Positions 1-39,499 of a stretch of 39,499 nt of DNA are shown here, one piece after another (the first letter of the stretch is position 1; each line of letters starts with the position of its first letter). The notes beneath the pieces are model-generated. The model did not search any database. It saw nothing but the letters and a program-made list of their open reading frames with translations, and was not told the origin of the DNA. Origin of the DNA: Shigella phage SFP20; the sequence record OQ031076; one strand, written 5' to 3'. A program made the position numbers and the translations under genes.

Positions 1-1050
1 ATGGCAAACGTTCCGGGTCAGAAAATTGGTGCAGACCAAGGTAAGGGCAAATCTAGTGCAGACCAGCTCGCACTGTTCCTTAAGGTCTTCGCTGGTGAAG
101 TCCTGACAGCTTTCACTCGCCGCTCTGTTACCGCTGACAAACATATTGTCCGTACCATTCAGAACGGTAAGTCCGCACAGTTCCCGGTAATGGGTCGCAC
201 CTCAGGTGTGTATCTTGCTCCCGGTGAGCGCCTGAGCGATAAGCGCAAGGGTATCAAACACACTGAGAAGGTTATCACCATTGATGGTCTGCTGACCGCT
301 GACGTGATGATTTTCGACATCGAAGACGCTATGAACCACTATGACGTGGCTGGCGAGTATTCCAACCAGCTCGGTGAGGCTCTGGCTATCGCTGCTGATG
401 GCGCGGTACTGGCTGAGATGGCGATTCTGTGTAACCTCCCGGCTGCATCCGATGAGAACATCGCTGGTCTGGGTAAGGCGTCCGTTCTGGAAGTTGGTAC
501 TAAAGCAGACCTGAACACTCCAGCCAAGCTGGGTGAAGCGATCATCGGTCAACTGACCATCGCACGTGCGAAGCTGACCGCCAACTACGTGCCTGCTGGC
601 GACCGCTACTTCTACACCACCCCTGACAACTACTCCGCGATTCTGGCGGCCCTGATGCCTAACGCTGCTAACTACGCTGCGCTGATTGACCCTGAGACGG
701 GCAACATCCGTAACGTAATGGGCTTCGTTGTGGTTGAAGTTCCTCACCTGACTCAGGGCGGTGCTGGGGAAACTCGTGGTGACGATGGCATCTCCATTGC
801 TTCCGGTCAGAAACACGCATTCCCGGCAACCTCCAGCTCTACCGTTAAGGTTGCTCTGGACAACGTTGTGGGCCTGTTCTCTCACCGTTCTGCCGTTGGT
901 ACTGTTAAGCTGCGTGACTTGGCGCTGGAACGTGACCGCGACGTCGATGCTCAGGGCGACCTGATTGTCGGTAAGTACGCTATGGGTCACGGCGGTCTGC
1001 GTCCAGAAGCGGCAGGCGCACTGGTTTTCAAGGCAGCGTCAGCGGGTTAA
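1..1050 (+). CDS. 10A: major capsid protein (gene 10A)
   Basis: 349 aa ORF; strong similarity by eye to T7 gp10A (KLALFLKVF, SAQFPV, KHTEKVITIDGLLTADV, AILAALMPNAANYAALIDPE, HRSAVGTVKLRDLALER, KYAMGHGGLRPEAAGA). The RBS and phi10 promoter lie at the window 3' end (circular permutation). Confidence 0.96.
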   Translation: MANVPGQKIGADQGKGKSSADQLALFLKVFAGEVLTAFTRRSVTADKHIVRTIQNGKSAQFPVMGRTSGVYLAPGERLSDKRKGIKHTEKVITIDGLLTADVMIFDIEDAMNHYDVAGEYSNQLGEALAIAADGAVLAEMAILCNLPAASDENIAGLGKASVLEVGTKADLNTPAKLGEAIIGQLTIARAKLTANYVPAGDRYFYTTPDNYSAILAALMPNAANYAALIDPETGNIRNVMGFVVVEVPHLTQGGAGETRGDDGISIASGQKHAFPATSSSTVKVALDNVVGLFSHRSAVGTVKLRDLALERDRDVDAQGDLIVGKYAMGHGGLRPEAAGALVFKAASAG

Positions 1051-1313
1051 TGACCTTTAAGGCCCTCTCTACAGAGGGTCCTACCTTAGAGACATACAGT
1101 TCTACGGTGGGAACCAGCTTGAAGGTTGACTTCCCTGAGCTTTCAGATGTGACCGATTGGTCGCTGCTTGAGGTGACTACACCTGATGGTGTTAGCTACT
1201 CCCGTAGAACCAACAGTCTCTACTTCAAGGCCACCTCTGGCGTGGAAGGTCTGGTGATTGTTGGGTATGACGGTTCGCCTGTGCGTTCCTTCAACGTATC
1301 TTTCACAAACTAA
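1..1313 (+). CDS. 10B: minor capsid protein 10B, made by -1 ribosomal frameshift near the 3' end of 10A (about 1023-1029, G GTT TTC) into the ORF ending at 1313
   Basis: The -1 frame downstream of GGTTTTC stays open for about 95 codons to the TAA at 1311-1313 (ORF 1050..1313 in the track); same arrangement as the T7 10A/10B frameshift. Confidence 0.6.
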
Positions 1314-1319
1314 TTGAAA

Positions 1320-1355
1320 CCCCTTGGGTGCCTTCGGGTGCTTGAGGGGTTTTTT
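1320..1355 (+). terminator. Tphi-like intrinsic terminator after gene 10
   Basis: CCCCTTGGGTGCC-TTCG-GGTGCTTGAGGGG stem (with G-U pairs) and UUCG tetraloop, followed by TTTTTT; resembles T7 Tphi (AACCCCTTGGGGCCTCTAAACGGGTCTTGAGGGGTTTTTTG). Confidence 0.85.
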
Positions 1356-1370
1356 GCTTAAGGAGGGCCT

Positions 1371-1937
1371 ATGGCTCAATACATTCCACTGAATGCTAAC
1401 GATGACTTGGATGCTGTTAACGATATGCTGGCTGCTATCGGTGAACCAGCAGTCCTCCAGCTCGACGAAGGGAATGCAGATGTCTCGAACGCTCAGCGCA
1501 TCCTGCATCGAGTAAATCGTCAGGTCCAAGCTAAAGGCTGGAACTTTAATATCAACGAGGCCGCTGTCCTCACACCGGATGTCCAAGACCAAAGGATTCG
1601 ATTCTTGCCGTCTTACCTCCGTGTCATGACTGCTGGTGCTACCAGCTACTACAGTAACATGGGCGGCTATCTCTATGACCTCAGCACTCAGTCGACAACC
1701 TTCACTGGACCGATTACCGTAGAGCTGGTTGAGATGAAGCCGTTCTCTGAGATGCCTGTGGTCTTCAGGGACTACATCGTGACCAAGGCCAGCCGAGAGT
1801 TCAACGCTAAGTTCTTCGGCAGCCCTGAGTCTGAAGCCTATCTGCGCGAGCAGGAAGCTGAGCTGTACCAGCAGGTGATGGAGTATGAGATGGACACCGG
1901 GCGCTACAACATGATGTCTGACATCGGTCGAGACTAA
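1371..1937 (+). CDS. 11: tail tubular protein A (gp11)
   Basis: 188 aa; position after gene 10 and motifs shared with T7 gp11 (AVNDMLAAIGEP, RQVQAKGWNFN, IVTKASREFNAKFFG, MEYEMD). RBS AAGGAGG upstream. Confidence 0.92.
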   Translation: MAQYIPLNANDDLDAVNDMLAAIGEPAVLQLDEGNADVSNAQRILHRVNRQVQAKGWNFNINEAAVLTPDVQDQRIRFLPSYLRVMTAGATSYYSNMGGYLYDLSTQSTTFTGPITVELVEMKPFSEMPVVFRDYIVTKASREFNAKFFGSPESEAYLREQEAELYQQVMEYEMDTGRYNMMSDIGRD

Positions 1938-1948
1938 TAGGAGGTGAT

Positions 1949-4318
1949 ATGCCACTTTACACACAATCAATCAAGAACCTGAAGGGTGGCATTAGCCAAC
2001 AGCCGGACATCCTGAGGTTCTCTGACCAAGGTGAACAGCAGATTAACGGCTGGTCATCCGAAAGTGATGGGCTTCAGAAGCGACCGCCGACCGTCTGGAA
2101 GAAGAGACTTTCAGCCGTGAACTGGGTCATCCCGAACAACGCTAAGTTCCACCTGATTAACCGCGATGAGAACGAGCAGTATTACATCGTACTCACCGGA
2201 AAGGAAATCATGGTCTTTGACCTTGAGGGGAACCAGTACGCTGTTTCAGGTGTAACGGACTACGTGAACACTTCCAAGCCACGTGACGACATCCGGGTCA
2301 TTACAGTAGCTGACTACACGTTCGTAGTGAATCGGCGCACTGTGGTGGCTCAGGGGACAAATAAGGCAAACCCTACTTACAACATGAAGAACCGCGCTTT
2401 GATTAACCTTCGTGGTGGTCAGTACGGTAGATTGCTGAAGGTAGGAATTAATGGCGGTACAAAGGTTGAGCACCAGCTTCCTCCGGGAGATAACGCCAAA
2501 GATGACCCACCTAAAGTCGACGCTCAGGCTATCGGTAAGGCGTTGGTGGACCTGCTTGTCGTGGCCTATCCGAACTACACGTTCACCCTTGGGTCTGGCT
2601 ACATCGAGATTAAAGCCCCAGCAGGGACCAACATCAACTCGGTGGAGACTGAGGATGGCTATGCCAACCAGCTAATCAATGCGGTACTTGATACTGTGCA
2701 GACTATCAGTAAGCTACCTCTGGCAGCACCTGAAGGCTACATCATCCGTATTCAGGGTGAGACCAACAGCTCAGCCGATGAGTATTTCGTGAAGTATGAC
2801 TCCGCGAAGAAGACTTGGCGCGAGACTGTGGAGCCGGGGACCGTAACTGGTTTCGATGCGTCGACCATGCCGCACGCTCTGGTCAGACAGGCCGATGGGA
2901 ACTTTACGTTCCAGACTCTCGATTGGTCTGAGCGGGGAGCAGGGAATGATGAAACCAACCCGATGCCGAGCTTCGTGAACTCCACGATTAACGATGTGTT
3001 CTTCTATCGTAACCGCTTAGGGTTCCTCTCTGGCGAGAACGTCATTATGTCCCGGTCGGCTGGCTACTTTGCGTTCTTCCCTAAAAGCGTGGCGACCCTC
3101 AGTGATGACGACCCGATTGATGTGGCTGTGAGTCACCCTCGAATCTCCATCCTGAAGTATGCCGTGCCGTTCGCTGAACAGCTCCTGCTGTGGTCTGATG
3201 AGGTACAGTTCGTGATGACCAGCTCTGGGGTCCTGACCGCCAAGTCCATTCAGCTTGACGTAGGCTCTGAGTTCGCTGTGAGTGATAACGCTCGACCGTT
3301 CGCTATCGGACGCTCAGTCTTCTTCGCGGCTCCTCGCGGCTCGTTCACCAGCATTAACCGTTACTTTGCGGTGGCCGACGTGACTGACGTGAAGGACGCA
3401 GACGATACGACCGGGCATGTGCTGTCCTACATTCCTAACGGAGTGTTCGACATCCAAGGGTCCTCGACTGAGAACTTCATCACGGTGTCGACTGAAGGTG
3501 CTCCGAACAAGCTGTTCATCTACAAGTTCCTCTTCAAGGATGGCGTACAGCTTCAAGCCTCGTGGTCACACTGGGAGCTGGAGCAGGGCGAGCAGATTAT
3601 GGCCTCAGCCTGTATCGGGTCCGCTATGTACATCGTGCGTAAGCATGGCTATGGCGTGGACTTGGAGAAGCTGGAGTTCATCAAGGAGACTGTGGACATC
3701 GCTGGCGAACCGTACCGTCTACACCTTGATGGCAAAACAACTATGGTCATCCCGACTAACGCATTCAACCCTAACACATACACATCATCCTTCGACGTTG
3801 GTGCGGCTTACGGTGGAGTTTTCCCACCAGCAGGGAAGTACGTCATGGTCGACTCAAGTGGGCGCTTCGTGCAACTGCCGGACACCGTATGGTCCAACAC
3901 TCGGTGGGTGACTGTGAAGGGAGATTGGTCAGGCAAGACAGTGTTCCTCGGTCGCGTCTACAAGTTCACCTACGCCTTCTCTCGGTTCCTCATCAAGTAT
4001 GAAGACCAGAATGGGACGGTAACGGAAGACTCCGGTCGACTACAGCTTCGCCGCGCTTGGGTGAACTATCAGCGTACTGGCGCTCTGGTGATGCGTGTCG
4101 TAAACCAACAGCGTGAGTTTCTGAACACCCTGAACGGCTACAAGCTGGGACTACAGGACATCGGTCAGGTCAATATTGGTGATGGTCAGTTCCGGTTCCC
4201 AATGAACGGTGACGCTCTGCACACTCGGTTAATCCTTGAGTCAGACTATCCGACTCCATTGTCCATCGTTGGTTGCGGCTGGGAGGCTTCATACGCCCGT
4301 AAAGCCAAAGCTATCTAA
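1949..4318 (+). CDS. 12: tail tubular protein B (gp12)
   Basis: 789 aa, size and position match T7 gp12 (794 aa); RBS TAGGAGGTG upstream. Confidence 0.9.
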   Translation: MPLYTQSIKNLKGGISQQPDILRFSDQGEQQINGWSSESDGLQKRPPTVWKKRLSAVNWVIPNNAKFHLINRDENEQYYIVLTGKEIMVFDLEGNQYAVSGVTDYVNTSKPRDDIRVITVADYTFVVNRRTVVAQGTNKANPTYNMKNRALINLRGGQYGRLLKVGINGGTKVEHQLPPGDNAKDDPPKVDAQAIGKALVDLLVVAYPNYTFTLGSGYIEIKAPAGTNINSVETEDGYANQLINAVLDTVQTISKLPLAAPEGYIIRIQGETNSSADEYFVKYDSAKKTWRETVEPGTVTGFDASTMPHALVRQADGNFTFQTLDWSERGAGNDETNPMPSFVNSTINDVFFYRNRLGFLSGENVIMSRSAGYFAFFPKSVATLSDDDPIDVAVSHPRISILKYAVPFAEQLLLWSDEVQFVMTSSGVLTAKSIQLDVGSEFAVSDNARPFAIGRSVFFAAPRGSFTSINRYFAVADVTDVKDADDTTGHVLSYIPNGVFDIQGSSTENFITVSTEGAPNKLFIYKFLFKDGVQLQASWSHWELEQGEQIMASACIGSAMYIVRKHGYGVDLEKLEFIKETVDIAGEPYRLHLDGKTTMVIPTNAFNPNTYTSSFDVGAAYGGVFPPAGKYVMVDSSGRFVQLPDTVWSNTRWVTVKGDWSGKTVFLGRVYKFTYAFSRFLIKYEDQNGTVTEDSGRLQLRRAWVNYQRTGALVMRVVNQQREFLNTLNGYKLGLQDIGQVNIGDGQFRFPMNGDALHTRLILESDYPTPLSIVGCGWEASYARKAKAI

Positions 4319-4342
4319 CTCATTGAATGGCCTATAGAAACT

Positions 4343-4365
4343 ATTACACCCTCACTATAGGGACT
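4343..4365 (+). promoter_or_regulatory. phage RNAP promoter (phi13 position), ATTACACCCTCACTATAGGGACT, +1 about 4360
   Basis: Match to the repeated 23-bp CCCTCACTATAGG promoter family found 12 times in the window. Confidence 0.8.
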
Positions 4366-4393
4366 ATAGGCCCTTTAAGTTATAGGAGACTTT

Positions 4394-4864
4394 ATGTATA
4401 TTCGTAAGGCTACTGAACCTGATGTCCACTACTTATTGTGGCATCTCTCACAAGATGACGTTAAAGAGTGCCGAGCAAACTTCGGGTCGACTAAAGGTCT
4501 GACTGATAGAATGCTTAGCCACCTCACTCCGTCATCTGTGGTTTTGACGAATGGTGTAGGCGAAGTGTTTGCCTATGGTGGGAACCAAGGTGATAACGTG
4601 TGGTTCCTGACTTCAAGTCTTGTCGAAAGGTTAAGACCGAAAGACAAGCGGGAGTTTATTCAGCGTATCTCTGAGTACAGGGACTTAATGTTAGACCAAT
4701 ACGGGACCATCTGGAACTACGTGTGGTCAGGCAATAAGTCTCACATTAGATTCTTGCGGTTGCTGGGCGCTAAGTTTCACCCTGAGGTGACTATCAGTCC
4801 GGTAACAGGTGAGCGTTTTCAATTATTCACAATCTCTAAGGAGGACGTATGTGCGAACCCGTAA
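4394..4864 (+). CDS. 13: internal virion protein A (gp13 position)
   Basis: 156 aa ORF with RBS TAGGAGAC between gene 12 and gene 14; assignment by synteny only. Confidence 0.65.
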   Translation: MYIRKATEPDVHYLLWHLSQDDVKECRANFGSTKGLTDRMLSHLTPSSVVLTNGVGEVFAYGGNQGDNVWFLTSSLVERLRPKDKREFIQRISEYRDLMLDQYGTIWNYVWSGNKSHIRFLRLLGAKFHPEVTISPVTGERFQLFTISKEDVCANP

Positions 4865-5436
4865 GTATCGGCATGGGTATCATGGCTGTAGCCGGGGCCA
4901 CTATGTCCGCATCCCAACAGGCAAAGGCTGAGGGTGCTGCTATTGACGCTCAGAACCGACAGGCTCAGGAGATGATTAAGCAGATGAACTACTCTGACGC
5001 CAACCTGAGGATGCAGGAGCGAGACCTTAAGGAACAGCAGGTCGCTGAACTGACCGAGACGACTCTGAACGGTATTCGTAATCAGGGCATGGTCCGTGCA
5101 GCAGTGGCTGAGTCTGGTCTGGAAGGTAACGCCATGAACCGCATTGAGCGCTCAGTGGAAGGCGACACCGTGAAGGAACGTGCTGGCATCACCGAAAGCT
5201 ACAACCGCGACTATGCGGCTATCTTCGGGAACCGTATTGCCAACATTGAGAACACCAAGTCTGCCATCAAGGGTCAGGCTAAAATCATCAAGACCAGCCC
5301 TCTGGCTCACGCACTTAACGTCACATCTGCTGGTATGCAGGGCTACATGGCTGGCGAGTCTCTCGCTGGGTCCAAGCCGTCAGGCGGTGCAGCTCCAATT
5401 AGTGCCGCTAAAGGCACACCTACAGGTCATAGCTAA
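4849..5436 (+). CDS. 14: internal virion protein B (gp14)
   Basis: 195 aa; begins MC like T7 gp14, similar length (196 aa), Ala/Gln-rich; RBS TAAGGAGG. Confidence 0.85.
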   Translation: MCEPVSIGMGIMAVAGATMSASQQAKAEGAAIDAQNRQAQEMIKQMNYSDANLRMQERDLKEQQVAELTETTLNGIRNQGMVRAAVAESGLEGNAMNRIERSVEGDTVKERAGITESYNRDYAAIFGNRIANIENTKSAIKGQAKIIKTSPLAHALNVTSAGMQGYMAGESLAGSKPSGGAAPISAAKGTPTGHS

Positions 5437-5447
5437 CAGGAGGACCA

Positions 5448-7730
5448 ATGGCTAGTAATATCGAATCAGCTTTAGCTAACCGGACTATGGGCCGTGGTCG
5501 CGCTCCGGGCAAAGCTATCAGTGTAGACTATCAAGCGGCTAACGTTCAGGGGCAGACTGGGGACTCCGGTCTTGCCCGTGCGTTCACCAACTTCGTGGAG
5601 TCCGGCACTGGCCTGTACAAGCAGTTTCAAGAGAAGGCCAAGAACCTTGGGGATGAGCGGTCTAACGAGATTATCCGTAAGCTGACTCCCCAGCAACGGC
5701 GTGAGGCCATCCAGAATGGGACCCTTCTGTATCAGGACGACCCATACGCAATGGAGGCACTGAAGGTCAAGACTGGACGAAACGCTGCCTATGCGGTAGA
5801 CGATGAGATTAACGTCAAGATTCAGAACGGCGAGTTCCGCACCCGTCAGGATATGGAGGAGTATCGCCACCAGCGACTTCAGGATGCCGCTAAGTCCTAC
5901 GCTGATGAGGCTGGTATTAATCCTAATGATGAGCACTTCCAGCGTGGATTTAACGCAGACATCACGGACCGTAACGTAGCCATCTATGGGTCGTTCAATA
6001 AGTATTTCTCTAAGCAGTCCGAGAATACTGCTATGCTGAACACCCGTGTAGAGCTGAACTCGTTCCTGAATGATGGGGACCTGATGCGCTCACCTGAGGC
6101 AGGCAAGTCTTTCATGGCGTACCTTCGCGATGGGCTGACAACTGCCGCCATTCCGTCTGACCAGAGAGCGACTGAAGTTATCTCCCAGACGGTTCGTGAC
6201 GCAATCCAGAAGTCTGGCGGGGCCAACTTCCTACAGCAGATTCGACAAGAGCGCATCACCCTTAACGGAGTGGACGCCACAGTCGAGGAGATTGTCGGGC
6301 CGGAGGTCTTCAACGCCGCTCTGATTGAGGCCCAAGGAACCGAGTACAAGCTGGTGGCTAAGTATCAGGAAGACCTAGCGTTGGGAGTCCAGTCTGCCCT
6401 GCTTCAGGATGACCCGACTATTGGTCTGGCTCAAATCCAGAAACTCAAGGCTCAGAACAACCAGCTCCAGCCGGGTGAGGAGATGACACCACAACGTCAG
6501 ATGCTCATCAATGCTGAGGCCAGCCTCTTAGAGACCGTGAAGCGCAAGTCCGCTGAGCAGGCCAAGGAGAACGTTAAGCTCATCCAGACGCAGAACAAGC
6601 AACTGGTCATCGACCAAGTGTATCAGAGACGACTGGCTGGGGACAACGTGTCCACCAACTATGAGGACCTTCCGGTATCTGAGGCCACTGGTGAGTTCAA
6701 GCGTTCGGACATGAACAACTACGCTATGGGTAAACTCCAGCAGATTGACCAGATGGACATCCCGCAAGCTGCGAAGGATGCTCAGAAGGTGGCACTGCTG
6801 CGGGCTGACACCAACAATGGACCGTTCCGTAATGCCTTCCAGACGCTGACTCAGGATGCTGCTGGTGAGTGGCAGGCTGCGGTAATCCGTGGTCAATACG
6901 ACCCGGACAAGATGCAGCGCTTCGAGGCCCTGCGTAAGGTCTACACTCAGGACCCTTCCAGCTTCGCGGCTCTATACCCTGACCAAGCCCAATTGTTCAC
7001 GACTTTCGAGCAGATGGACAAGATGGGTCTGGACCCTCAGACGATGATTGATGCTGACAAACAGGCTGCAAGCCAGTCCCGTGAGATGCGCATTGAGTCT
7101 GACAAGGCGTGGCAAGAGCTGAAGAACGACTCGAAGAACAAGGACCTCTCGCGGCTCCCGACGAGTCTTGACGCAAGCGCTCGTAAGGTCTGGGACTCAT
7201 GGTATTACCGCACAGGTAACGCCGATGCAGCTACCCAGAACACTCAGAAGTGGCTGAACGAGAACACCGTGACTTTCAGTGATGATGGTCAGGACGGTAA
7301 GTCAATCGGCATGGTGTCCAAGCACCAGCTTATGGTAGGGGATAACCCTGAGTCTTGGCAGGTTGGTCGAGACATTATCGACACAGCCCGCAAGCAGCTC
7401 ATCAAGACTAACCCTTGGGTCGTGAACTCTCAGCTCTCTGTAGTTGAGCAGAACGGCTCGGTCTTCCTGCAAGACGCCACTGGGACCATTCGTATTCGCT
7501 ACGATAAGGAACTGGTTGGTAAACTGTACCGTGAACAGCAGAAACAAGCCGAGGATAAAGCCTACGCTGAAGCTGAACGTAAAGCCAACACCCGCGCTCG
7601 CATTGTCGAGACTAAAGCGGCTGGCGATAAGCGTCGGGCCGAACGTGAAGGTAATATCCAGAAACGCGGTGGTCTGTACAGTGATGTCTCGCTGGAGGGT
7701 ATCGCAAACACCTTAATCGGTAAGGAGTAA
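5448..7730 (+). CDS. 15: internal virion (core) protein C (gp15)
   Basis: 760 aa vs T7 gp15 747 aa; synteny; RBS AGGAGG. Confidence 0.88.
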   Translation: MASNIESALANRTMGRGRAPGKAISVDYQAANVQGQTGDSGLARAFTNFVESGTGLYKQFQEKAKNLGDERSNEIIRKLTPQQRREAIQNGTLLYQDDPYAMEALKVKTGRNAAYAVDDEINVKIQNGEFRTRQDMEEYRHQRLQDAAKSYADEAGINPNDEHFQRGFNADITDRNVAIYGSFNKYFSKQSENTAMLNTRVELNSFLNDGDLMRSPEAGKSFMAYLRDGLTTAAIPSDQRATEVISQTVRDAIQKSGGANFLQQIRQERITLNGVDATVEEIVGPEVFNAALIEAQGTEYKLVAKYQEDLALGVQSALLQDDPTIGLAQIQKLKAQNNQLQPGEEMTPQRQMLINAEASLLETVKRKSAEQAKENVKLIQTQNKQLVIDQVYQRRLAGDNVSTNYEDLPVSEATGEFKRSDMNNYAMGKLQQIDQMDIPQAAKDAQKVALLRADTNNGPFRNAFQTLTQDAAGEWQAAVIRGQYDPDKMQRFEALRKVYTQDPSSFAALYPDQAQLFTTFEQMDKMGLDPQTMIDADKQAASQSREMRIESDKAWQELKNDSKNKDLSRLPTSLDASARKVWDSWYYRTGNADAATQNTQKWLNENTVTFSDDGQDGKSIGMVSKHQLMVGDNPESWQVGRDIIDTARKQLIKTNPWVVNSQLSVVEQNGSVFLQDATGTIRIRYDKELVGKLYREQQKQAEDKAYAEAERKANTRARIVETKAAGDKRRAEREGNIQKRGGLYSDVSLEGIANTLIGKE

Positions 7731-7735
7731 TAACA

Positions 7736-29164: not shown

Positions 29165-29187
29165 TTTAAACACTCACTAAAGGGAGA
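29165..29187 (+). promoter_or_regulatory. phage RNAP promoter, T3-like variant TTTAAACACTCACTAAAGGGAGA
   Basis: Only copy with CACTAAAGGGAGA (T3-type -3..+6) and ACACT at -12..-8. Confidence 0.7.
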
Positions 29188-29233
29188 GGACTTCGGTCTT
29201 TTCCCTTTTGTCGCATTATTGATTAAGGAGTGA

Positions 29234-30940
<1,707 letters not shown>

Positions 30941-30999
30941 TCCTCAATACTTCTGGATTGACGAGTGGGAAGAACTTAATGAACAAGACCGGAGGAACA

Positions 31000-31530
31000 A
31001 TGCGAAACTTAATCAGCGGTAAGACCCTCAGTGAGTTCCAGAACCAGCTTGGCCCGAAGGAGGGCCTTAACGTCTTCACGACACGCTGCACTGGCAGGAC
31101 CAAGAGTCGCGCCTTACTGTTCATCTCCACGGTTATGGTCCAAGGGTCTATGGACATCGGGCCTCTCCGTGGCAACCTCGGTGATGATGAGGTCAATTAC
31201 ACCAAGATGGAAATCATCAAGTCCCTAGACCAGATGCAGCTCGTAGGCTTCTCGTGGTCCGGTGACGTTCTGTCCTACTACCCGTTTGAGGAGTATCAAG
31301 ATGTTAAAGAGGTTGTGCGAGAAGTTAAAGTCGAAGTATCACCTTTCGCTGGCGAAGTGGTATCACCACGAAGCTACCGTGTTGTCGAACATTCTGAAGG
31401 ACCAGCGGTTCCAGTCGATAGCTTGGAACAAAGCTACCCAGAAGTGCGCGTATCATCTGGCGAGAGTGCTGTAGTCCCGATGGAGGTCATTGAACCTCTG
31501 GTCCCGGACATGACGCCTCCCAAGCAATAA
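31000..31530 (+). CDS. hypothetical protein (gene 4.3-4.7 region)
   Basis: 176 aa from the ATG at 31000 behind RBS GGAGG, within the track ORF 30919..31530; this frame has the G-rich first codon positions typical of the other genes here. Confidence 0.45.
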   Translation: MRNLISGKTLSEFQNQLGPKEGLNVFTTRCTGRTKSRALLFISTVMVQGSMDIGPLRGNLGDDEVNYTKMEIIKSLDQMQLVGFSWSGDVLSYYPFEEYQDVKEVVREVKVEVSPFAGEVVSPRSYRVVEHSEGPAVPVDSLEQSYPEVRVSSGESAVVPMEVIEPLVPDMTPPKQ

Positions 31531-31548
31531 GCCCTCACTGTAGGATAG
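31526..31548 (+). promoter_or_regulatory. phage RNAP promoter variant, AATAAGCCCTCACTGTAGGATAG
   Basis: Family match with TGTA in place of TATA. Confidence 0.65.
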
Positions 31549-31588
31549 ACTCAAGGCCATTCACATCGAGTGGTCTTTATGATTAGAC
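31548..31588 (+). promoter_or_regulatory. putative RNase III stem-loop upstream of gene 5
   Basis: GACTCAAGGCCATTCACATCGAGTGGTCTTTATGATTAGAC; same flank motifs as the other candidate sites. Confidence 0.5.
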
Positions 31589-31603
31589 TATAGGAGATTA
31601 ACC

Positions 31604-33775: not shown

Positions 33776-34059
33776 TGGCTATTACTAAACGTATTCGCGT
33801 GAGTTTTGACCTGAAGATGGTTGTTAGCTCAAAGGAAGAAGAGACAATGTGTCGTCAGCTTGCTGAGATGACTAAAGCCTATGCTGAGGGCGAGAAGCTG
33901 GATGGACTTCAGTTGGCTCTGGTCAAAACAGCAATCGAGTCAGGTCCTGAGTCTGCCCTTGAAATTGCCGTCAAGAAGACCATCAAGGAGGAGCTGGTAG
34001 ACGCCTTTGGTGATGACCAGTTCGGAGTATCCAACCTGCGATTCGAGGTCAAGCAATGA
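33775..34059 (+). CDS. 5.5: gene 5.5 protein (H-NS-binding protein in T7)
   Basis: 94 aa; MAITKRIRVSFDL vs T7 gp5.5 MAMTKKFKVSFDV; TAATG overlap with the gene 5 stop. Confidence 0.7.
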   Translation: MAITKRIRVSFDLKMVVSSKEEETMCRQLAEMTKAYAEGEKLDGLQLALVKTAIESGPESALEIAVKKTIKEELVDAFGDDQFGVSNLRFEVKQ

Positions 34060-34265
34060 GTGAATACTTACGGGTCCTTGCGGCCCTTAAGTCCTGCCCG
34101 AAGACCTTCCAGTCCAACTATGTGCGCAACAACGCTGCACTTGTGGCTGAGGCTGCGAGTCGTGGACATCTAAGCTGCCTGTCTATGGATGGGCGTAACA
34201 ACGGTGCGTGGGAGATTACCGCTGCTGGCACCAAGTTCCTGAACCAACACGGAGGCTGTCTATGA
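34056..34265 (+). CDS. 5.7: gene 5.7 protein
   Basis: 69 aa; near-identical to T7 gp5.7 (LKSCPKTFQSNYVRNNA.LVAEAASRGH.SCLS, GAWEITA.GT.FL, GGC). Confidence 0.9.
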   Translation: MSEYLRVLAALKSCPKTFQSNYVRNNAALVAEAASRGHLSCLSMDGRNNGAWEITAAGTKFLNQHGGCL

Positions 34266-34594
34266 GCTTACTAGAAACTTTACAATCCCTGCTGCGTGAG
34301 AACCCTTGGTCAGACGAGCTGCCAGACGAGTGGGAAATCCTTGAGGATGGAGACTGGTGTGACAACCATAAGTCCGAGGCCAAAGAGGACATCGTTAAGC
34401 ACCTGCCTTCAGGTAAAATCTTCCGCGTGTCTCTGGGTCGAACTGGGGACTACTGGCAGGGCTACGAGACTGAGTTCTATGATGCTGAAGAGGTTGAACC
34501 TTATGAAGCGGTCGTGGTTCTATACCGTCCTGTGAAACTTCTGGATGTCACTGTCCCGGCAATGAGTAAAGCCAAGGCGGTGAGCAATGAGTGA
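34262..34594 (+). CDS. hypothetical acidic protein (gene 5.9 position)
   Basis: 110 aa from the ATG at 34262 within the track ORF 34208..34594; acidic and Trp-containing (ELPDEWEILEDGDWCD). Confidence 0.5.
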   Translation: MSLLETLQSLLRENPWSDELPDEWEILEDGDWCDNHKSEAKEDIVKHLPSGKIFRVSLGRTGDYWQGYETEFYDAEEVEPYEAVVVLYRPVKLLDVTVPAMSKAKAVSNE

Positions 34595-35453
34595 GAAGAA
34601 GATAGCTCTGGTTCTGGATGGTGACTATCTGGTCTTCTCTTCTATGGCTGCTGCCGAGGACGAGACAGACTGGGGCGATGACATCTGGACACTTATCTGC
34701 GACCATGAGAAGGCTCGTCGTATCCTTGAGAACACCATCGCTGAAATCGTTAAGAAGCGCAAGGCGTGGAAAGACGCTAAGATTGTGATGTGCTTCACCG
34801 ATGACGATAACTGGCGTAAGGGTGTTCTGCCTACCTATAAGGCCAACCGTAAAGGTTCTCGCAAGCCTGTCGGTTACAAGAAGTTCGTAGCCGAAGTGAT
34901 GGCTGACCCACGGTTCAACAGCTTCCTGCGTCCTACTCTTGAGGGTGACGACTGTATGGGTATCATCGGGACCCGACCTCAGATTGTCGGATGTGACCAT
35001 GCGGTGCTGGTGTCCTGTGATAAGGACTTCAAGACCATCCCGAACTGTGAGTTCTTCTGGTTAACCACTGGTGAAGTCCTGAGCCACACGACTGCTGAGG
35101 CAGACTACTGGCACATGGAGCAGACCATCAAGGGTGACATGACCGATGGCTACGGTGGCATTCCGGGGATGGGCGAGGACACTACCCGTGCGTTCCTTGA
35201 CGAGCCGTACTACTTCGTGCAGGAGACCCGTGAGCTGAAGACTGGCAAGAACAAAGGGCAGCTTAAGGTCGAGTGGAAGAAGTATCCGAAGCGCGAGGAC
35301 CAGACGTTGTGGGACTGCATGGTTACACTGGCTGCTAAAGCTGGTATGACCGAGGAGGAGCTGCTGGTCCAAGCACGAGTGGCTCGCATCTGCCGGGCGA
35401 CCGACTTCGACTTCAAGCAGAAGGAGGTCATTCTGTGGACTCCCTGCATCTAG
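34587..35453 (+). CDS. 6: 5'-3' exonuclease (gene 6)
   Basis: 288 aa; DGDWLVF/DGDYLVFSSMAA, YKANRK, KPVGY, LEGDD.MG, CDKDFKTIPNC.F, IKGD.TDGY.GI.G, LWDC, GMTEE match T7 gp6. Confidence 0.95.
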   Translation: MSEKKIALVLDGDYLVFSSMAAAEDETDWGDDIWTLICDHEKARRILENTIAEIVKKRKAWKDAKIVMCFTDDDNWRKGVLPTYKANRKGSRKPVGYKKFVAEVMADPRFNSFLRPTLEGDDCMGIIGTRPQIVGCDHAVLVSCDKDFKTIPNCEFFWLTTGEVLSHTTAEADYWHMEQTIKGDMTDGYGGIPGMGEDTTRAFLDEPYYFVQETRELKTGKNKGQLKVEWKKYPKREDQTLWDCMVTLAAKAGMTEEELLVQARVARICRATDFDFKQKEVILWTPCI

Positions 35454-35574
35454 TCTACTGGGCTGGCCTGCTGGTCCTGTACTTTATGTACACAATCAGT
35501 GGGTCCAATCGGCCTAAGCATTAAGCCTAACCGATAGTCTTATCCTATCAATGGTCCATTACCCATAGGGAAAT

Positions 35575-35597
35575 AATAAACCCTCACTATAGGGATT
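35575..35597 (+). promoter_or_regulatory. phage RNAP promoter (phi6.5 position), AATAAACCCTCACTATAGGGATT
   Basis: Family match; followed by an inverted repeat TAAGACT ... AGTCTTA (about 35611-35640). Confidence 0.8.
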
Positions 35598-35660
35598 TTG
35601 GACCAAAGATAAGACTATAAGATAGACTTAAGTCTTAACTTAAAGAGAGGAGACGTAACG

Positions 35661-35933
35661 ATGGCAATCAAAGTCATTGATGATACAATCAATCAACTCG
35701 TTGAAGAACGACTCAAGGTCCCTGCCTTCTCCGAGTCAGCCGTTCAGTTCCTGCACATCCTGTTCAACGCAAGCTATGCGTCCAAGCTGGGTGTCATCAA
35801 CGACCTGAAGGTTGCTGGCTACAGTGAAGGATATATCGCAGGCTTTATCGGTGGTCTTCAGTATTGTTCAGACACTCTGGACTCTGCGGTAGCTAAACGT
35901 CAAAGCCTGAAGGACAACGTACAGTTCGACTAA
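35661..35933 (+). CDS. 6.5: gene 6.5 protein (hypothetical)
   Basis: 90 aa ORF with RBS GAGAGGAG; assigned by position. Confidence 0.6.
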   Translation: MAIKVIDDTINQLVEERLKVPAFSESAVQFLHILFNASYASKLGVINDLKVAGYSEGYIAGFIGGLQYCSDTLDSAVAKRQSLKDNVQFD

Positions 35934-35944
35934 CAGGAGGGACT

Positions 35945-36169
35945 ATGTGCTTCAGCCCTAAGATTAGCACTCCCAAGCCTAAGCCTAATGCACCTGAACC
36001 TGCGCCTCTGAGTGAGGACGTAGCCAGCGTGGACATCGGGGCTGAGGATGGAGCGGACACCAAGGAGACCAAAGGTATTTCAGACCTTAAGGTCAAGCGG
36101 GAGTCCTCACCGAAAGATAAATCGTCAGTGAGCCGCGCTATGCGAGCCTCTGGCGTCAACATGGGGTAA
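35945..36169 (+). CDS. 6.7: gene 6.7 virion protein
   Basis: 74 aa; MCFSPKI.TPK ... EPAPL ... LKV.R matches the T7 gp6.7 N-terminus; RBS ACAGGAGGG. Confidence 0.8.
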   Translation: MCFSPKISTPKPKPNAPEPAPLSEDVASVDIGAEDGADTKETKGISDLKVKRESSPKDKSSVSRAMRASGVNMG

Positions 36170-36173
36170 GACT

Positions 36174-36575
36174 ATGCTTCATTACCGAAACTCAAGCGAT
36201 GGTCGCCGCATGGCTGCTGAGCGCCTCTGGGAAGACGGACAGTCTGACTTCGCCTCGTTCTCTGACTTTAAGCAGCATACCTTCCGTATGGCTGATGAGT
36301 TAGAAGGAGAGGAGTATACAATCTACGATGATGAGCTAAAGCCTGTGGCCTACCTCTACATGCTGGCTTCATCGTCTTGGCACCGAAAGACTCCCGGTCT
36401 TGACCTTTCCATTCTCGCTATCCGTAGTGACTCGCAGTCCTCCCGCAAGGTTCTTGAGACTGTCAGCCACATTATTGACGGAGAGTGTAGACGATGGGGT
36501 CTGAACTGGTGGTCCCGTGTCAAGCACAATGGGCCAGTAGACATCGTTCTAACCAAGGAGATAAACCGTGGGTAA
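36174..36575 (+). CDS. 7: gene 7 protein (hypothetical; gene 7 position)
   Basis: 133 aa, same length as T7 gp7; assigned by synteny. Confidence 0.6.
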   Translation: MLHYRNSSDGRRMAAERLWEDGQSDFASFSDFKQHTFRMADELEGEEYTIYDDELKPVAYLYMLASSSWHRKTPGLDLSILAIRSDSQSSRKVLETVSHIIDGECRRWGLNWWSRVKHNGPVDIVLTKEINRG

Positions 36576-36819
36576 ATCTATTAGCAAGGCATTCAAGAAA
36601 GTGGTGGGTGGTGCCCTGAATACTGTGGGTCTGGGACCTTCAGCTCCTCAGCCGAAAGCTCAGGAACAGCAGGTCGCTGCTGCGCCAGTTGACGTCCCTC
36701 AGGACCAAGTGACTGACGTCGAGACCGATGTGACCGAGACCGATAAGAAGAAGGTCAAGGCGACTGGTAAGCGTGGACTTCAGGTCTCTCGTACCTCTGG
36801 TGGCGGTATCTCAATCTAA
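36568..36819 (+). CDS. 7.3: gene 7.3 tail/virion protein, apparent GTG start
   Basis: 83 aa; MGK ... C-terminal SRTSGGGISI vs T7 gp7.3 ARSSGGGINI; RBS AAGGAGA before the GTG at 36568. Confidence 0.75.
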   Translation: MGKSISKAFKKVVGGALNTVGLGPSAPQPKAQEQQVAAAPVDVPQDQVTDVETDVTETDKKKVKATGKRGLQVSRTSGGGISI

Positions 36820-36831
36820 CGGAGGTGACTA

Positions 36832-38400
36832 ATGGCTGAACGTGAAGGCTTCGCTGCTGAAGGAGCCAAGGCGGTCTATGACCGACTGAAGAACGGTCGC
36901 CAGCCGTATGAGACCCGTGCTCAGAACTGCGCTGCTGTCACCATCCCGTCACTGTTCCCGAAAGAGTCTGACAACTCCTCAACCGAGTATACGACTCCGT
37001 GGCAGGCTGTTGGTGCTCGCTGCCTGAACAACCTCGCTGCTAAACTGATGCTGGCCCTGTTCCCTCAAGCCCCGTGGATGAGACTCACCGTCTCTGAATA
37101 CGAGGCCAAGACCCTGAGTCAAGACTCTGAGGCCGCTGCTCGTGTGGATGAGGGGCTGGCTATGGTCGAGCGTGTTCTGATGGCCTACATGGAGACTAAC
37201 AGTTTCCGTGTCCCACTGTTCGAGGCTCTGAAGCAACTTATCGTCTCAGGCAACTGTCTGCTGTACATTCCTGAACCTGAGCAGGGGACCTACAGTCCTA
37301 TGCGCATGTATCGTCTGGTCTCATATGTGGTCCAGCGCGATGCGTTTGGTAACGTGCTACAGATTGTCACCCTCGACAAGGTTGCGTACAGCGCACTCCC
37401 GGAAGACGTTAAGTCACAGCTCAACGCTGATGACTACGAGCCGGACACTGAGCTGGAAGTTTACACGCACATCTATCGTCAGGACGACGAGTACCTGCGT
37501 TATGAGGAAGTGGAAGGAGTAGAGGTTAAGGGGACCGATGGTTCCTACCCGCTTACCGCCTGTCCTTACATCCCGGTACGAATGGTTCGACTGGACGGTG
37601 AAGACTATGGTCGTTCTTACTGCGAGGAGTATCTGGGCGACCTGAACTCGCTGGAGACGATTACAGAAGCTATCACCAAAATGGCTAAGGTAGCCTCCAA
37701 AGTGGTGGGTCTCGTTAACCCGAACGGCATCACGCAACCTCGACGTCTGAACAAGGCGGCTACAGGTGAGTTCGTGGCTGGTCGCGTAGAGGACATCAAC
37801 TTCCTGCAACTGACGAAAGGTCAGGACTTTACGATTGCCAAGTCGGTGGCTGATGCTATCGAGCAACGTTTAGGCTGGGCCTTCCTTCTTAATAGTGCTG
37901 TTCAGCGTAATGCCGAGCGAGTCACTGCCGAAGAGATTCGTTATGTTGCTGGCGAACTGGAGGCGACCTTAGGTGGCGTGTATTCCGTGCAGTCTCAGGA
38001 GATGCAGTTACCTCTGGTCCGTGTGCTGCTGAACCAGCTTCAGTCTGCTGGCATGATTCCTGACCTTCCGAAAGAAGCAGTAGAGCCTACGGTCTCCACT
38101 GGTCTGGAAGCTCTGGGTCGTGGTCAGGACTTGGAGAAGCTGACTCAGGCGGTTAACATGATGACTGGACTTCAGCCTCTGGCTCAGGACCCGGACATCA
38201 ACTTACCGACCCTTAAGTTGCGACTCCTTAACGCTCTGGGCATCGACACCGCTGGTCTGCTCCTGACGCAAGACGAGAAGATTCAGCGTATGGCTGAGCA
38301 GTCGTCTCAACAGGCAGTCGTACAAGGCGCTGGTGCTGCTGGTGCCAATATGGGCGCTGCTGTGGGTCAGGGCGCTGGCGAGGATATGGCTCAGGCTTAA
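36832..38400 (+). CDS. 8: portal / head-tail connector protein (gene 8)
   Basis: 522 aa; extensive identity to T7 gp8 (YETRAQNCA, TIPSLFPK, TPWQAVGAR.LNNLA.KLMLALFP, YVVQRDAFGNVLQ, LRYEEVEG, ACPYIP.RMVRLDGE.YGRSY.EEYLGDL.SLE, GLVNP.GITQPRRL.KA.TG.FV.GR.EDI.FLQL, ERVTAEEIRYVA.ELE.TLGGVYS, LPLVRVLL.QLQ, PKEAVEPT.STGLEA.GRGQDL.KL). Confidence 0.98.
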   Translation: MAEREGFAAEGAKAVYDRLKNGRQPYETRAQNCAAVTIPSLFPKESDNSSTEYTTPWQAVGARCLNNLAAKLMLALFPQAPWMRLTVSEYEAKTLSQDSEAAARVDEGLAMVERVLMAYMETNSFRVPLFEALKQLIVSGNCLLYIPEPEQGTYSPMRMYRLVSYVVQRDAFGNVLQIVTLDKVAYSALPEDVKSQLNADDYEPDTELEVYTHIYRQDDEYLRYEEVEGVEVKGTDGSYPLTACPYIPVRMVRLDGEDYGRSYCEEYLGDLNSLETITEAITKMAKVASKVVGLVNPNGITQPRRLNKAATGEFVAGRVEDINFLQLTKGQDFTIAKSVADAIEQRLGWAFLLNSAVQRNAERVTAEEIRYVAGELEATLGGVYSVQSQEMQLPLVRVLLNQLQSAGMIPDLPKEAVEPTVSTGLEALGRGQDLEKLTQAVNMMTGLQPLAQDPDINLPTLKLRLLNALGIDTAGLLLTQDEKIQRMAEQSSQQAVVQGAGAAGANMGAAVGQGAGEDMAQA

Positions 38401-38418
38401 ACCCTCACTATAGGAACA
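38396..38418 (+). promoter_or_regulatory. phage RNAP promoter (phi9 position), CTTAAACCCTCACTATAGGAACA
   Basis: Family match; transcript leader contains a 9-bp perfect inverted repeat GGAACAACG (38414-38422) / CGTTGTTCC (38452-38460). Confidence 0.8.
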
Positions 38419-38488
38419 ACGTCTGGTCTACAATTTGTAGGTTTCTAGTCCCGTTGTTCCTATCAACAACCATCAAAGGAGAGACTTA

Positions 38489-39373
38489 ATGTCCCAATCA
38501 GTTTATGCCGAGTTCGGCGTTAGTCCTAATGCAATCACTGGTTCCGTTGAGGACCTGAACGAACACCAACAGTCTATGCTGGAGAAGGACGTAGCTGTCC
38601 GTGATGGCGATGATGCCATTACCTTCAAGCAACTGGAAGCCGAGCAACAGGAAGAGGCGACCGAAGAAGGCGAGAACGTCGAAGAGGCTGAAGGCGAAGA
38701 AACCGAAGGCAACGACGATGAGTCCGATACCGAAGGCGATGACCAAGAGTTCGTTGAGCTGGGCGAAACCCCGAAAGAGCTGACCGAAAGTGTAGCCGCT
38801 CTTGACGAGAATGAAGCTGCGTTCGACGACATGGTGTCTGCTGCTGTAGAAGCTGGTAAGGTTACTGCTGATGACATAGCCACTATTAAGGCTGAATACG
38901 CATCTAAAGGTGAACTGTCCGAGGCATCCTACGCTAAGCTGGCTGAAGCTGGATACACCAAGCGTTTCGTCGATTCGTTCGTCCGTGGTCAGGAAGCTCT
39001 GGCTGAGCAGTATGCTGCGGGTGTGGTTCGCTACGCTGGTGGTGCTGAGCAGTTCAACCGCATCCTGTCTCACCTTGAGGCCAACGATAAGTCAACCAAG
39101 GAAGCCCTTGAGTCTGCAATCATCCGTAAGGACCTTGCGACCGCTAAGGCCATCCTGAATCTGGCTGGTCGTAACCTCGGCAAGACCCGTGGCGTTGCAC
39201 CTCAGCGCACCCTGACGACCCAAGGTAAGCCAGCAGTCGCTGCACCGAAGGTCCAGACCGAAGGCTTCAGCTCCAAGGCTGACATGATTAAGGCCATGAG
39301 CGACCCGCGCTATCTGCGTGATGCTGCTTACACCAACTCTGTCCGCACGAAGGTTGCTGCTTCCAACTTCTAA
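38489..39373 (+). CDS. 9: capsid assembly (scaffolding) protein (gene 9)
   Basis: 294 aa; RDGDDAI, acidic central region, SYAKLAE.GYTK.F.DS..RGQEAL.EQY, DLAT.KAI.NLAG, IKAMSDPRY, C-terminal SNF as in T7 gp9. Confidence 0.93.
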   Translation: MSQSVYAEFGVSPNAITGSVEDLNEHQQSMLEKDVAVRDGDDAITFKQLEAEQQEEATEEGENVEEAEGEETEGNDDESDTEGDDQEFVELGETPKELTESVAALDENEAAFDDMVSAAVEAGKVTADDIATIKAEYASKGELSEASYAKLAEAGYTKRFVDSFVRGQEALAEQYAAGVVRYAGGAEQFNRILSHLEANDKSTKEALESAIIRKDLATAKAILNLAGRNLGKTRGVAPQRTLTTQGKPAVAAPKVQTEGFSSKADMIKAMSDPRYLRDAAYTNSVRTKVAASNF

Positions 39374-39394
39374 TATACCCTCACTATAGGGAGA
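39372..39394 (+). promoter_or_regulatory. phage RNAP promoter phi10 (major capsid promoter), AATATACCCTCACTATAGGGAGA
   Basis: Best match to the T7/T3 class III consensus (GGGAGA at +1..+6); followed by a leader and RBS AGGAGA at 39486-39491 that serves the ATG at window position 1 once the window is circularised. Confidence 0.85.
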
Positions 39395-39499
39395 CCAAGA
39401 GTTACGACTCAAGGTTTCCCTGTAACTTCAGTCCATACGGATTGGGCACAACGAAGTCACTAAACTTTATTTCTTTCATTCGAATAGGAGAATTATCAT

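Follow-up and report, generated by a model that had tools for sequence, protein, structure and literature searches.

The GenBank record of Shigella phage SFP20 is very probably a collapsed and circularised short-DTR genome re-opened at the gene 10 start codon

The window that we analysed is the whole published GenBank record of Shigella phage SFP20, 39,499 bp in length, in which the capsid, tail fibre and RNAP proteins are exact matches to WBF70018.1, WBF70026.1 and WBF70037.1 respectively. Comparison with T7 proteins by tblastn confirmed the proposal of the initial annotation that the T7 map is reproduced, with genes 10–19 at 1–17011 and genes 0.7–9 at 19497–39370, all on the + strand, as is every feature described below. 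The matches to T7 genes 10, 11, 12, 13, 14, 15, 16, 17, 17.5, 18, 18.5, 18.7 and 19 are collinear at 16–16993, those to genes 0.7, 1, 1.3, 2, 2.5, 3, 3.5, 4, 5, 5.7, 6, 6.5, 6.7, 7.3, 8 and 9 are collinear at 19497–39370, and 45 of the 47 CDS of the sister phage SFP21B were recovered in SFP20 in the same order. Scans of the window for Rfam families (at gathering thresholds) and for tRNAs found nothing.

The record starts, as had been noted, at the gene 10 ATG: position 1 is the first base of an ORF of 349 aa (gene 10A, the major capsid protein, 1–1050), the product of which has 70% identity to T7 gp10A. A T7-type −1 frameshift site, GGTTTTC, can be read at 1023–1029, and the −1 frame relative to gene 10 is open from 1050 to 1313, giving a predicted gene 10B extension (1023–1313) whose counterpart in SFP21B carries only a 'hypothetical' annotation. 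It is followed by a Tphi-like terminator hairpin and T run (1317–1356), placed as is Tphi in T7 and T3. The late genes 11–19 form a block at 1371–17011, identified with T7 proteins by tblastn and having 98–100% identity to the SFP21B proteins; these are genes 11 (1371–1937), 12 (1949–4318), 13 (4394–4864), 14 (4849–5436), 15 (5448–7730), 16 (7736–11632), 17 (11698–14196), 17.5 (14243–14437), 18 (14434–14697), 18.5 (14802–15251), 18.7 (14905–15177) and 19 (15248/15281–17011). The gp18 homologue shows 52% identity to T7 gp18, and the terminase large subunit encoded by gene 19 shows 65% identity to T7 gp19 over residues 7–581, so that SFP20 has the T7-type terminase (gp18 plus gp19) associated with short-DTR genome ends. 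The last ORF before the predicted right end is a small gene 19.5-like ORF of 52 aa (17302–17460), which has 96% identity to SFP21B_014 and matches the position of gp19.5 in Dev2, IMM-002 and T7.

Gene 0.3 (18650–19102), with which the gene order of the physical genome begins, encodes an S-adenosylmethionine lyase of the T3 anti-restriction type (Pfam PF23780, E = 3.3e-40) with 99% identity to SFP21B_015. Comparisons with T7 and SFP21B proteins, together with Pfam, then define a block of early and middle genes at 19473–39373, comprising a 0.7-like kinase gene (19506–20240), gene 1 (20855–23521), a 1.05-like gene ending at 24268, the ligase gene 1.3 (24839–25906) and genes 2 (26902–27066), 2.5 (27110–27805), 3 (27808–28260), 3.5 (28474–28932), 4 (29237–30940), 5 (31604–33775), 5.7 (34056–34265), 6 (34587–35453), 6.5, 6.7, 7 (36174–36575), 7.3 (36568–36819), 8 (36832–38400) and 9 (38489–39373). 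The gene 1 product is an RNAP of 888 aa with 63–65% identity to the RNAPs of T7 and T3 and 89% identity to that of K1F, in an alignment that covers the catalytic and specificity-loop regions.

The phage promoter motif CCCTCACTATAGG, allowing up to two mismatches, occurs 12 times on the + strand, compared with 0.78 matches expected by chance on both strands. One of these promoters, downstream of gene 19 (17104–17126), lies where phiOR is found in T7 and T3. Unlike T7 and T3, SFP20 has a phage promoter upstream of gene 1, and the motif scan found no phiOL-type promoter between the terminal repeat and gene 0.3. Two early host-type promoters were placed by a sigma-70 consensus scan, TTGACA-17-TTTAAT at 18243–18271 and TTGACA-18-TAGTAT at 18400–18429, and we take the spacing of this region (18243–18429) to resemble that of the T7 A1/A2 region. 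The sigma-70 and terminator consensus scans showed no genome-wide enrichment over shuffled sequences and were used solely for placing the early promoters and Tphi.

At the other extremity of the record, the last 128 bases after gene 9 do hold the phi10 promoter, leader and RBS that had been described there. The promoter, TATACCCTCACTATAGGGAGA, spans 39372–39394 (−17 to +6, with +1 at 39389) and has phi10 orthologues in Ro45lw, Dev2, IMM-002, MopsHU1 and K1F; the gene 10 leader occupies 39395–39499, with an RBS, AGGAG, at 39486–39490 followed by AATTATCAT, and is severed from its ATG at position 1 by the record boundary. When the end of the window was joined to its start, the join aligned base for base, with no indel, to five relatives that are contiguous there.

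The same annotation had called the phage T7/T3-like, a description that holds at the level of the subfamily and fails at that of the genus. As expected of the Studiervirinae and of Kayfunavirus, SFP20 has a single-subunit T7-type RNAP gene in its early region; its genes all lie on one strand, follow the T7 order and have phage-specific promoters. T7 (NC_001604), T3 (NC_003298) and SFP20 share their gene map, a single-subunit RNAP that has promoters of its own, the frameshift site in gene 10 and Tphi, together with a short DTR in which TCTCA(C/T)AG opens the repeat and ATCTGT(T/A) comes directly behind it, although the repeat differs in length (190 bp in SFP20, 160 in T7 and 231 in T3). Features resembling T3 are the SAM lyase gene 0.3, the gene 1.05 domain and a D residue where the T7 RNAP has N748. 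However, blastn with T7 DNA gave only scattered segments of ~66–75% identity, whereas SFP20 DNA is 80–97% identical to K1F, Dev2, SH4, Ro45lw, GW1 and SFP21B across most of its length. Members of Kayfunavirus thus reach the genus-level nucleotide similarity (~70% or more over the genome), whereas Teseptimavirus (T7) is set apart by the scattered blastn matches, and both it and Teetrevirus (T3) by RNAP identities of only 64–65%. Judged by its sequence, SFP20 is a K1F-like phage of the genus Kayfunavirus and not of the T7 or T3 genera, in agreement with its NCBI taxonomy entry (species Kayfunavirus SFP20, genus Kayfunavirus, subfamily Studiervirinae).

Two sets of relatives are informative. SFP21B (OQ031073.1), the best nucleotide hit in the phage collection searched, and SFP21A (OQ031074.1) belong to the same submission series as SFP20, have the same host and source and are collinear with it; over the first 20 kb they are about 94–97% identical to SFP20 (96.9% over 1–19976 for SFP21B), and over the early/middle half ~91% (SFP21B) and ~89% (SFP21A) identical, with ~89% coverage. 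The second set, K1F (NC_007456, the type member of Kayfunavirus), Ro45lw, IMM-002 and MopsHU1, has the gene order of SFP20 and ~80–90% DNA identity over most of the genome. These four differ from SFP20 in the C-terminal part of gene 17, where there is no alignment at 33.8–36.0 kb of the rotated SFP20 genome, and in their promoters, which read CTATCACTATAGG rather than CCCTCACTATAGG. Unlike that of SFP20, each of their records opens at the left physical terminus and includes the terminal repeat twice.

Given these complete relatives, the position of the physical ends of SFP20 can be predicted. The proposal that they lie in the middle of the window was upheld: TCTCACAGT starts at 17698, the first base to align with the left ends of Ro45lw, IMM-002, MopsHU1 and K1F. 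By homology with the DTR boundaries of these phages, a single copy of a direct terminal repeat of 190 bp, TCTCACAGTTCAAG ... GAGTCTCT, is inferred at 17698–17887, its first and last bases being the predicted left and right physical ends respectively; both termini and the exact repeat length (189–190 bp) are derived from this homology only. The boundaries, from TCTCACAGTT to GAGTCTCT, are common to SFP20 and to the exact DTRs that occur twice in the records of Ro45lw (190 bp, annotated), IMM-002 (189 bp), MopsHU1 (195 bp, annotated as PhageTerm-predicted) and K1F (178 bp). The Ro45lw repeat rests on the annotation of its record and on exact duplication in the sequence, because a paper on that series applied PhageTerm to other phages and not to Ro45lw itself (PMC6454146). 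A direct-repeat search and blastn found no second copy of the 190 bp repeat in the window, the best other match being 17 nt. When the window was rotated and the repeat restored, the resulting 39,689 bp aligned from first base to last with Ro45lw, IMM-002 and MopsHU1; its alignment with K1F likewise started at base 1 of that phage.

The sequences flanking the repeat have features of a T7/T3-type junction. The unique right-end sequence adjoining it (17636–17697) contains two CCTACAGT repeats and a block, GGGACGATGAGTTTTGGACCAAAAGTTTGAGACCACA, which is nearly identical directly before the right terminal repeat in K1F, Ro45lw, MopsHU1 and IMM-002. Directly after the repeat lies ATCTGTA (17888–17894), in the position where T7 and T3 have ATCTGTT, which is presumably the class II pause signal of their concatemer junction. 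The form ATCTGT(T/A) directly follows the DTR in T7, T3, Ro45lw, IMM-002, MopsHU1 and SFP20; the K1F repeat ends one base earlier and its motif is thus offset by 1 nt. The left-end sequence TCTCACAG is accompanied by this post-repeat motif in SFP20, T7, T3 and the four Kayfunavirus records. To the right of the repeat is an array of five further CCTACAGT repeats (17936–18028), analogous to the CCTAAAG repeats of T7; 11 matches to CCTACAGT were found in the window compared with 1.6 expected, 7 of them at 17636–18028.

We therefore consider it very probable that the SFP20 record is a collapsed, circularised short-DTR linear genome, re-opened at the gene 10 ATG by the submitters or their pipeline. 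By analogy with its relatives, SFP20 is predicted to package a linear, non-permuted DNA of ~39,689 bp, with a 190 bp direct terminal repeat at each end. Short-read assembly would merge the two repeat copies, so that the contig closes into a 39,499 bp circle identical in sequence to one unit of a replicative concatemer, in which a single repeat lies between the right and left ends. If the circle were then re-opened at the start codon of the major capsid gene, phi10 and the leader with its RBS would come last in the record, and the true ends, 17698 (left) and 17887 (right), would stay inside an intact concatemer junction. From T7 and T3 biology, the gp18/gp19 terminase (14434–17011) would be expected to cut concatemers at this junction, with duplication of the repeat during packaging, and the position and conservation of the pre-repeat block, ATCTGTA and the flanking CCTACAGT arrays make them candidate cis elements for packaging. 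In T7 and T3, the RNAP–lysozyme complex pauses at the concatemer junction, thereby starting packaging (PMC3276506). Collapsed DTRs are a recognized assembly artefact, marked by ~twofold coverage over the repeat (PMC5923482).

A collapsed, circularised assembly of a short-DTR genome would yield just such a single repeat copy, which leaves the record 190 bp short of the virion DNA predicted for SFP20. The suggestion of a circularised assembly or a deliberate rotation was thus sound on both counts, given the single repeat copy and an opening at a start codon common to the sister records. The description of the genome as circularly permuted applies to the record and not to the virion DNA, as the ends are fixed in this phage group. 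The mentions of SFP20 and SFP21 that we found in the literature were limited to an ICTV taxonomy summary and a comparative paper, and we found no account of assembly, orientation or termini.

Alternatively, the assembler might have broken a circularised contig at an arbitrary point, which became position 1. Many related records do open at arbitrary places: that of GW1 starts inside gene 16, SFPH2 was deposited in the opposite orientation to the window (reverse complement) and has its record boundary at another point of the genome, and the Dev2 record begins only a few bases short of where the repeat ends on the right. However, the SFP20 break falls exactly at the A of a start codon, for which the chance is ~0.1% (~47 gene starts in 39,499 positions), and no assembler overlap of 10 nt or more, as would be left by k-mers, remains between the window end and its start. 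In addition, SFP21A and SFP21B are distinct genomes whose records open at the same gene 10 ATG, with the major capsid protein as first CDS and with record position 1 equivalent to that of the window. This shared start codon therefore points to a rotation made on purpose or by a pipeline; we regard a random breakpoint as improbable.

Still less likely, and rejected here, is headful packaging, which would give virion DNA with genuine circular permutation and terminal redundancy; in that case any start would be equally valid. One repeat copy and a closed circle, taken alone, would fit this as well as they fit a collapsed DTR, but the terminase large subunit resembles T7 gp19 from end to end, conserved features mark the junction as T7/T3-type, and four relatives, one with an annotated PhageTerm prediction, have exact short DTRs and hence fixed ends with identical boundary sequences, in place of the lack of fixed termini expected of headful genomes. 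That the physical ends are the window boundaries themselves, with termini ...AATTATCAT and ATGGCAAAC..., is suggested by nothing beyond the labelling of this record, like its sister records, as linear, and we reject it as extremely improbable, since it would leave the most highly expressed late gene without the RBS in front of its ATG, at a point where every relative with defined ends is continuous, and would disregard the conserved terminal-repeat sequence at 17698–17887.

A separate observation concerns the specificity of the RNAP and its promoters. The RNAPs of SFP20, SFP21B and GW1 have a T3-like specificity loop, with D and R at the positions of T7 N748 and R756, and a different AT-rich recognition loop; all of the 11–12 promoters in these phages have CC rather than TA at −10/−9 and usually T rather than C at −15. 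Together with Ro103C3lw and a few Enterobacter and Cronobacter phages they form a minority of ~11 of 223 Kayfunavirus-like records, the RNAP and promoters having been checked in full in SFP20, SFP21B and GW1 and the recognition-loop segment in the remainder. The flanking DNA is up to 93% identical to that of phages with the K1F-type system, including SFP21A, which was isolated on the same host strain and, unlike SFP20, has the K1F-type RNAP and promoters. It is possible, and we suggest it only tentatively, that RNAP specificity and promoters switched in step; if true and undescribed, this would be a recent, natural, genome-wide reprogramming of an orthogonal polymerase–promoter pair between near-identical phages.

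The rotation itself is an ordinary record-keeping artefact; the permutation holds nothing new and the genome was already published, so the value of the present analysis lies mainly in curation and our understanding of phage biology is unchanged by it. A non-biological orientation with one repeat copy missing is found not only in SFP20 but also in SFP21A, SFP21B and several further entries of Kayfunavirus. For SFP20, the form of the record understates the genome length by 190 bp, rotates the gene numbering and splits the phi10–gene 10 expression unit across the record ends, and the record will be mis-handled in whole-genome comparisons and by software that expects terminal repeats or synteny anchored at the start. 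Re-orientation would begin the record at 17698 and add 17698–17887 again at the right end.

The first bases of the window, ATGGCAAAC, start a 349-amino-acid ORF (1-1050) that is 70% identical to T7 gp10A by tblastn, and the window finishes, in order, with the gene 9 stop at 39373, TATACCCTCACTATAGGGAGA, a leader of approximately 100 nt and AGGAGAATTATCAT. We fused positions 39331-39499 to 1-90 and aligned the product with Ro45lw, Dev2, IMM-002, MopsHU1 and K1F, in all five of which gene 9, phi10 and gene 10 are continuous. The RBS, spacer and ATG read across the join as AGGAGAATTATCAT followed by ATGGCAAACG, as in the five relatives, the alignment being free of gaps and duplications, and a search for an overlap of at least 10 nt between window end and start left none. 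Judged by these alignments, the window boundary is artificial. The initial annotation had predicted this continuous phi10-RBS-gene 10 unit, and the gene 10 ATG at position 1, the promoter, leader and RBS at the end and the 17698 motif all lie where it had placed them.

Its claim that the true genome ends lie mid-window is also supported by alignment, as 17698, where TCTCACAGT starts, begins a stretch matching the direct terminal repeats of four relatives. Exact repeats of this kind are present in the records of Ro45lw (190 bp), IMM-002 (189 bp), MopsHU1 (195 bp) and K1F (178 bp), and are annotated as such for Ro45lw and MopsHU1, the latter citing PhageTerm; all four start with TCTCACAGTTCAAGAACCTCAAGTCT and finish with ...GAGTCTC(T). 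The equivalent stretch in the window is 17698-17887 (190 bp), preceded by the block GGGACGATGAGTTTTGGACCAAAAGTTTGAGACCACA, found in relatives directly before the right-hand repeat, and followed by ATCTGTATCAG, found in relatives after the left-hand repeat. T7 and T3 have the same layout, with a repeat starting TCTCA(C/T)AG and ATCTGTT directly after it. The window contains no second copy of the repeat, the next best blastn match being 17 nt, and a direct-repeat search of it returned no long direct repeat. We rotated the window so that it began at 17698 and added the repeat again at the other end, which gave a molecule of 39,689 bp; its alignments with Ro45lw, IMM-002 and MopsHU1 ran from the first base to the last, and that with K1F started at base 1. 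We predict that the physical ends of the SFP20 genome are the boundaries of 17698-17887.

Seven of the 11 CCTACAGT copies in the window (genome-wide expectation 1.6) lie to the left and right of the repeat, within 17636-18028, as candidate packaging/pause elements whose clusters resemble the CCTAAAG arrays of T7. In addition, ATCTGTA (17888-17894) abuts the repeat's right boundary, where T7 has ATCTGTT, the class II pause signal. Packaging or pause roles for ATCTGTA and the CCTACAGT copies we infer only by analogy.

Demonstrated in the window are one repeat copy, an intact right-end/repeat/left-end junction and T7-type terminase genes, and the ends are fixed and conserved in relatives. By analogy with T7/T3 biology, replication would produce head-to-tail concatemers with one repeat copy per junction, which the terminase gp18/gp19 would cut, the repeat being duplicated on packaging. 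In T7/T3, transcribing RNAP and lysozyme pause at the concatemer junction, aiding packaging start (PMC3276506), and such a pause at the right side of the SFP20 junction may likewise help packaging to begin. A short-read assembler would fuse the two identical ends, and the concatemer unit would come out circular; artefacts caused by DTRs, with approximately twofold coverage over them, have been reported (PMC5923482). The SFP21B and SFP21A records open at the same gene 10 ATG as the window. A breakpoint placed arbitrarily has a probability of approximately 0.1% of hitting a start codon, and the three genomes with this ATG in common differ from one another; this points to an opening point picked by the submitters or their pipeline. 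The single repeat copy, the seamless join and the ATG common to three records agree with the circularized assembly or deliberate rotation suggested initially.

We also mapped gene content by searching the window with 53 T7 proteins (tblastn). Genes 10A, 11, 12, 13, 14, 15, 16, 17, 17.5, 18, 18.5, 18.7 and 19 were found at 16-16993, with the gene 17 match confined to the N-terminal 171 amino acids, and 0.7, 1, 1.3, 1.8, 2, 2.5, 3, 3.5, 4, 4.2, 5, 5.7, 6, 6.5, 6.7, 7.3, 8 and 9 at 19497-39370; the T7 genes unmatched in the window are small accessory genes. All matches are collinear on the + strand, so that the T7 map order is reproduced as originally described. In place of gene 0.3 the window has a T3-type S-adenosylmethionine lyase at 18650-19102 (Pfam PF23780, E = 3.3e-40). 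Of the 47 annotated CDS of SFP21B, the closest searchable relative, 45 were recovered in order; its gp1.2-like dGTPase inhibitor has no match in the window, where the gene 1.2 slot (24534-24821) holds a different 95-amino-acid ORF, nor has the short ORF that follows its ligase gene (about 25906-26020). A tRNA scan and an Rfam search of the window found none. The gene set is complete for the phage type.

Near the gene 10 end, a T7-type slippery site, GGTTTTC, marks a candidate 10B frameshift (1023-1313), with the -1 frame open for approximately 95 codons further; the product is likely the 10B minor capsid protein. In the sister records this extension is annotated only as a separate 'hypothetical protein'. 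The gp17 protein (11698-14196) is a tailspike-like fusion of a T7 tail-fibre N-terminal adaptor (amino acids 12-117), Tail_spike_N (150-208) and a GDSL/SGNH esterase (269-449), which suggests a receptor-deacetylating spike. Phages of Citrobacter, Cronobacter and Shigella share the 832-amino-acid gp17 cluster.

The RNAP, tail fibre and capsid proteins are exactly WBF70037.1, WBF70026.1 and WBF70018.1 of Shigella phage SFP20 (species Kayfunavirus SFP20 in NCBI taxonomy); the phage, its record and the artefact type are all already known. The nearest searchable genomes, SFP21B and SFP21A, share its host strain and have neighbouring taxids. SFP21B is 96.9% identical over 1-19976, and 91% at 89% coverage over the remainder. 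The late half (1-20000) is 96.9% identical to SFP21B and approximately 94.5% to Dev2 and SH4, and the early/middle half (20000-39499) reaches at best approximately 90-91% (GW1, SFP21B) at approximately 89-92% coverage; on these identities, the SFP20 genome is mosaic. Exchanged genes appear to include 5.5 (35% amino acid identity to SFP21B), 6.5 (68%) and the ORF downstream of gene 1 (58%). T7 shows DNA identity only in 66-75% patches, and the T7 and T3 RNAPs are 64-65% identical to that of SFP20; by these measures the genome is Kayfunavirus, not T7 (Teseptimavirus) or T3 (Teetrevirus). The initial description 'T7/T3-like' holds for the T7 gene set and order, but not for the genus or the patchy T7 DNA identity. 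SFP20 resembles T3 in having a SAM lyase and a gene 1.05 domain, and in its left-end sequence and promoter core.

The core CCCTCACTATAGG (≤2 mismatches) occurs in 12 + strand copies, against 0.78 expected on both strands from shuffles, every one intergenic and equivalent in position to a T7 or T3 promoter (4343, 11628, 17104, 20763, 24264, 25970, 27062, 29165, 31526, 35575, 38396 and 39372). That at 20763-20785, ATATACCCTCACTAGAGGACTC, precedes the RNAP gene by approximately 70 nt and implies putative positive autoregulation; T7 and T3, unlike SFP20, have no phage-type promoter just upstream of this gene, whereas K1F, Dev2, Ro45lw, IMM-002 and MopsHU1 have orthologous ones. Upstream of gene 4, the variant AAACACTCACTAAAGGGAGA (29165-29187), with a T3-like AAAGGGAGA start, is present in SFP21B; in SFP21A and Dev2 no orthologue could be aligned with it.

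In the SFP20 RNAP (20855-23521) the residues of interest lie at about 88-125 and 750-775. SFP20-type enzymes (SFP20, SFP21B, GW1) have 888 amino acids, the specificity loop TTRLDLMFLGTFRLQPT, with D at the T7 N748 position, as in T3 RNAP, and R at the R756 position, and the AT-rich recognition loop STRGKPQVAF; their genomes carry 11 promoters of the CCCTCACTnnAGG form (12 matches in the SFP20 core search) and zero of the CTATCACTnnAGG form. K1F-type enzymes (SFP21A, Ro45lw, Dev2, IMM-002, MopsHU1, K1F) have 893 amino acids, with TTRLNL(L/M)FLGSFNLQPT and KSSTSRPSVAF, and their genomes carry 10-11 CTATCACT promoters and zero of the CCCTCACT form, an N/N loop being paired with CTATCACTATAGG promoters in all six, and the T3-like D/R loop with CCCTCACTATAGG promoters in the three SFP20-type genomes. 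Orthologous promoters differ between SFP20 and K1F types at -10/-9 (CC versus TA), and usually also at -15, within flanks that are 73-93% identical. No mixed genome, with one type's RNAP and the other's promoters, was found among the nine compared, across which the genus appears to split cleanly into SFP20 and K1F types; within the genus, the polymerase and its promoters seem to have undergone a joint switch of specificity. Covariation of contact residues R746, N748, R756 and Q758 with promoter bases in T7-like phages is documented (PMC11880802), and the residue-promoter rule is therefore known. By tblastn of the recognition-loop segment alone, only 11 of the 223 records matched contain the SFP20-type segment at ≥83% identity.

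As to the records themselves, that of IMM-002 (MF630921.1) is clearly over-annotated: both of its strands bear numerous short, implausible CDS that overlap one another and have unrelated names ('ATPase 8', '50S ribosomal protein L31', 'S26-RNase'). Several 'complete genome' records in the genus (Dev2, GW1, SFP21B, SFP21A, SFPH2) are either permuted or given as the reverse complement, and contain the terminal repeat once only: GW1 opens within gene 16, Dev2 a few bases before the repeat's right end, and SFPH2 is deposited as the reverse complement relative to the window. For SFP20 the practical outcome is a re-orientation recipe, namely to begin at 17698 and add 17698-17887 at the end. Permuted Kayfunavirus records are common, and they pose a systematic curation problem when statistics are drawn up on synteny or genome length.
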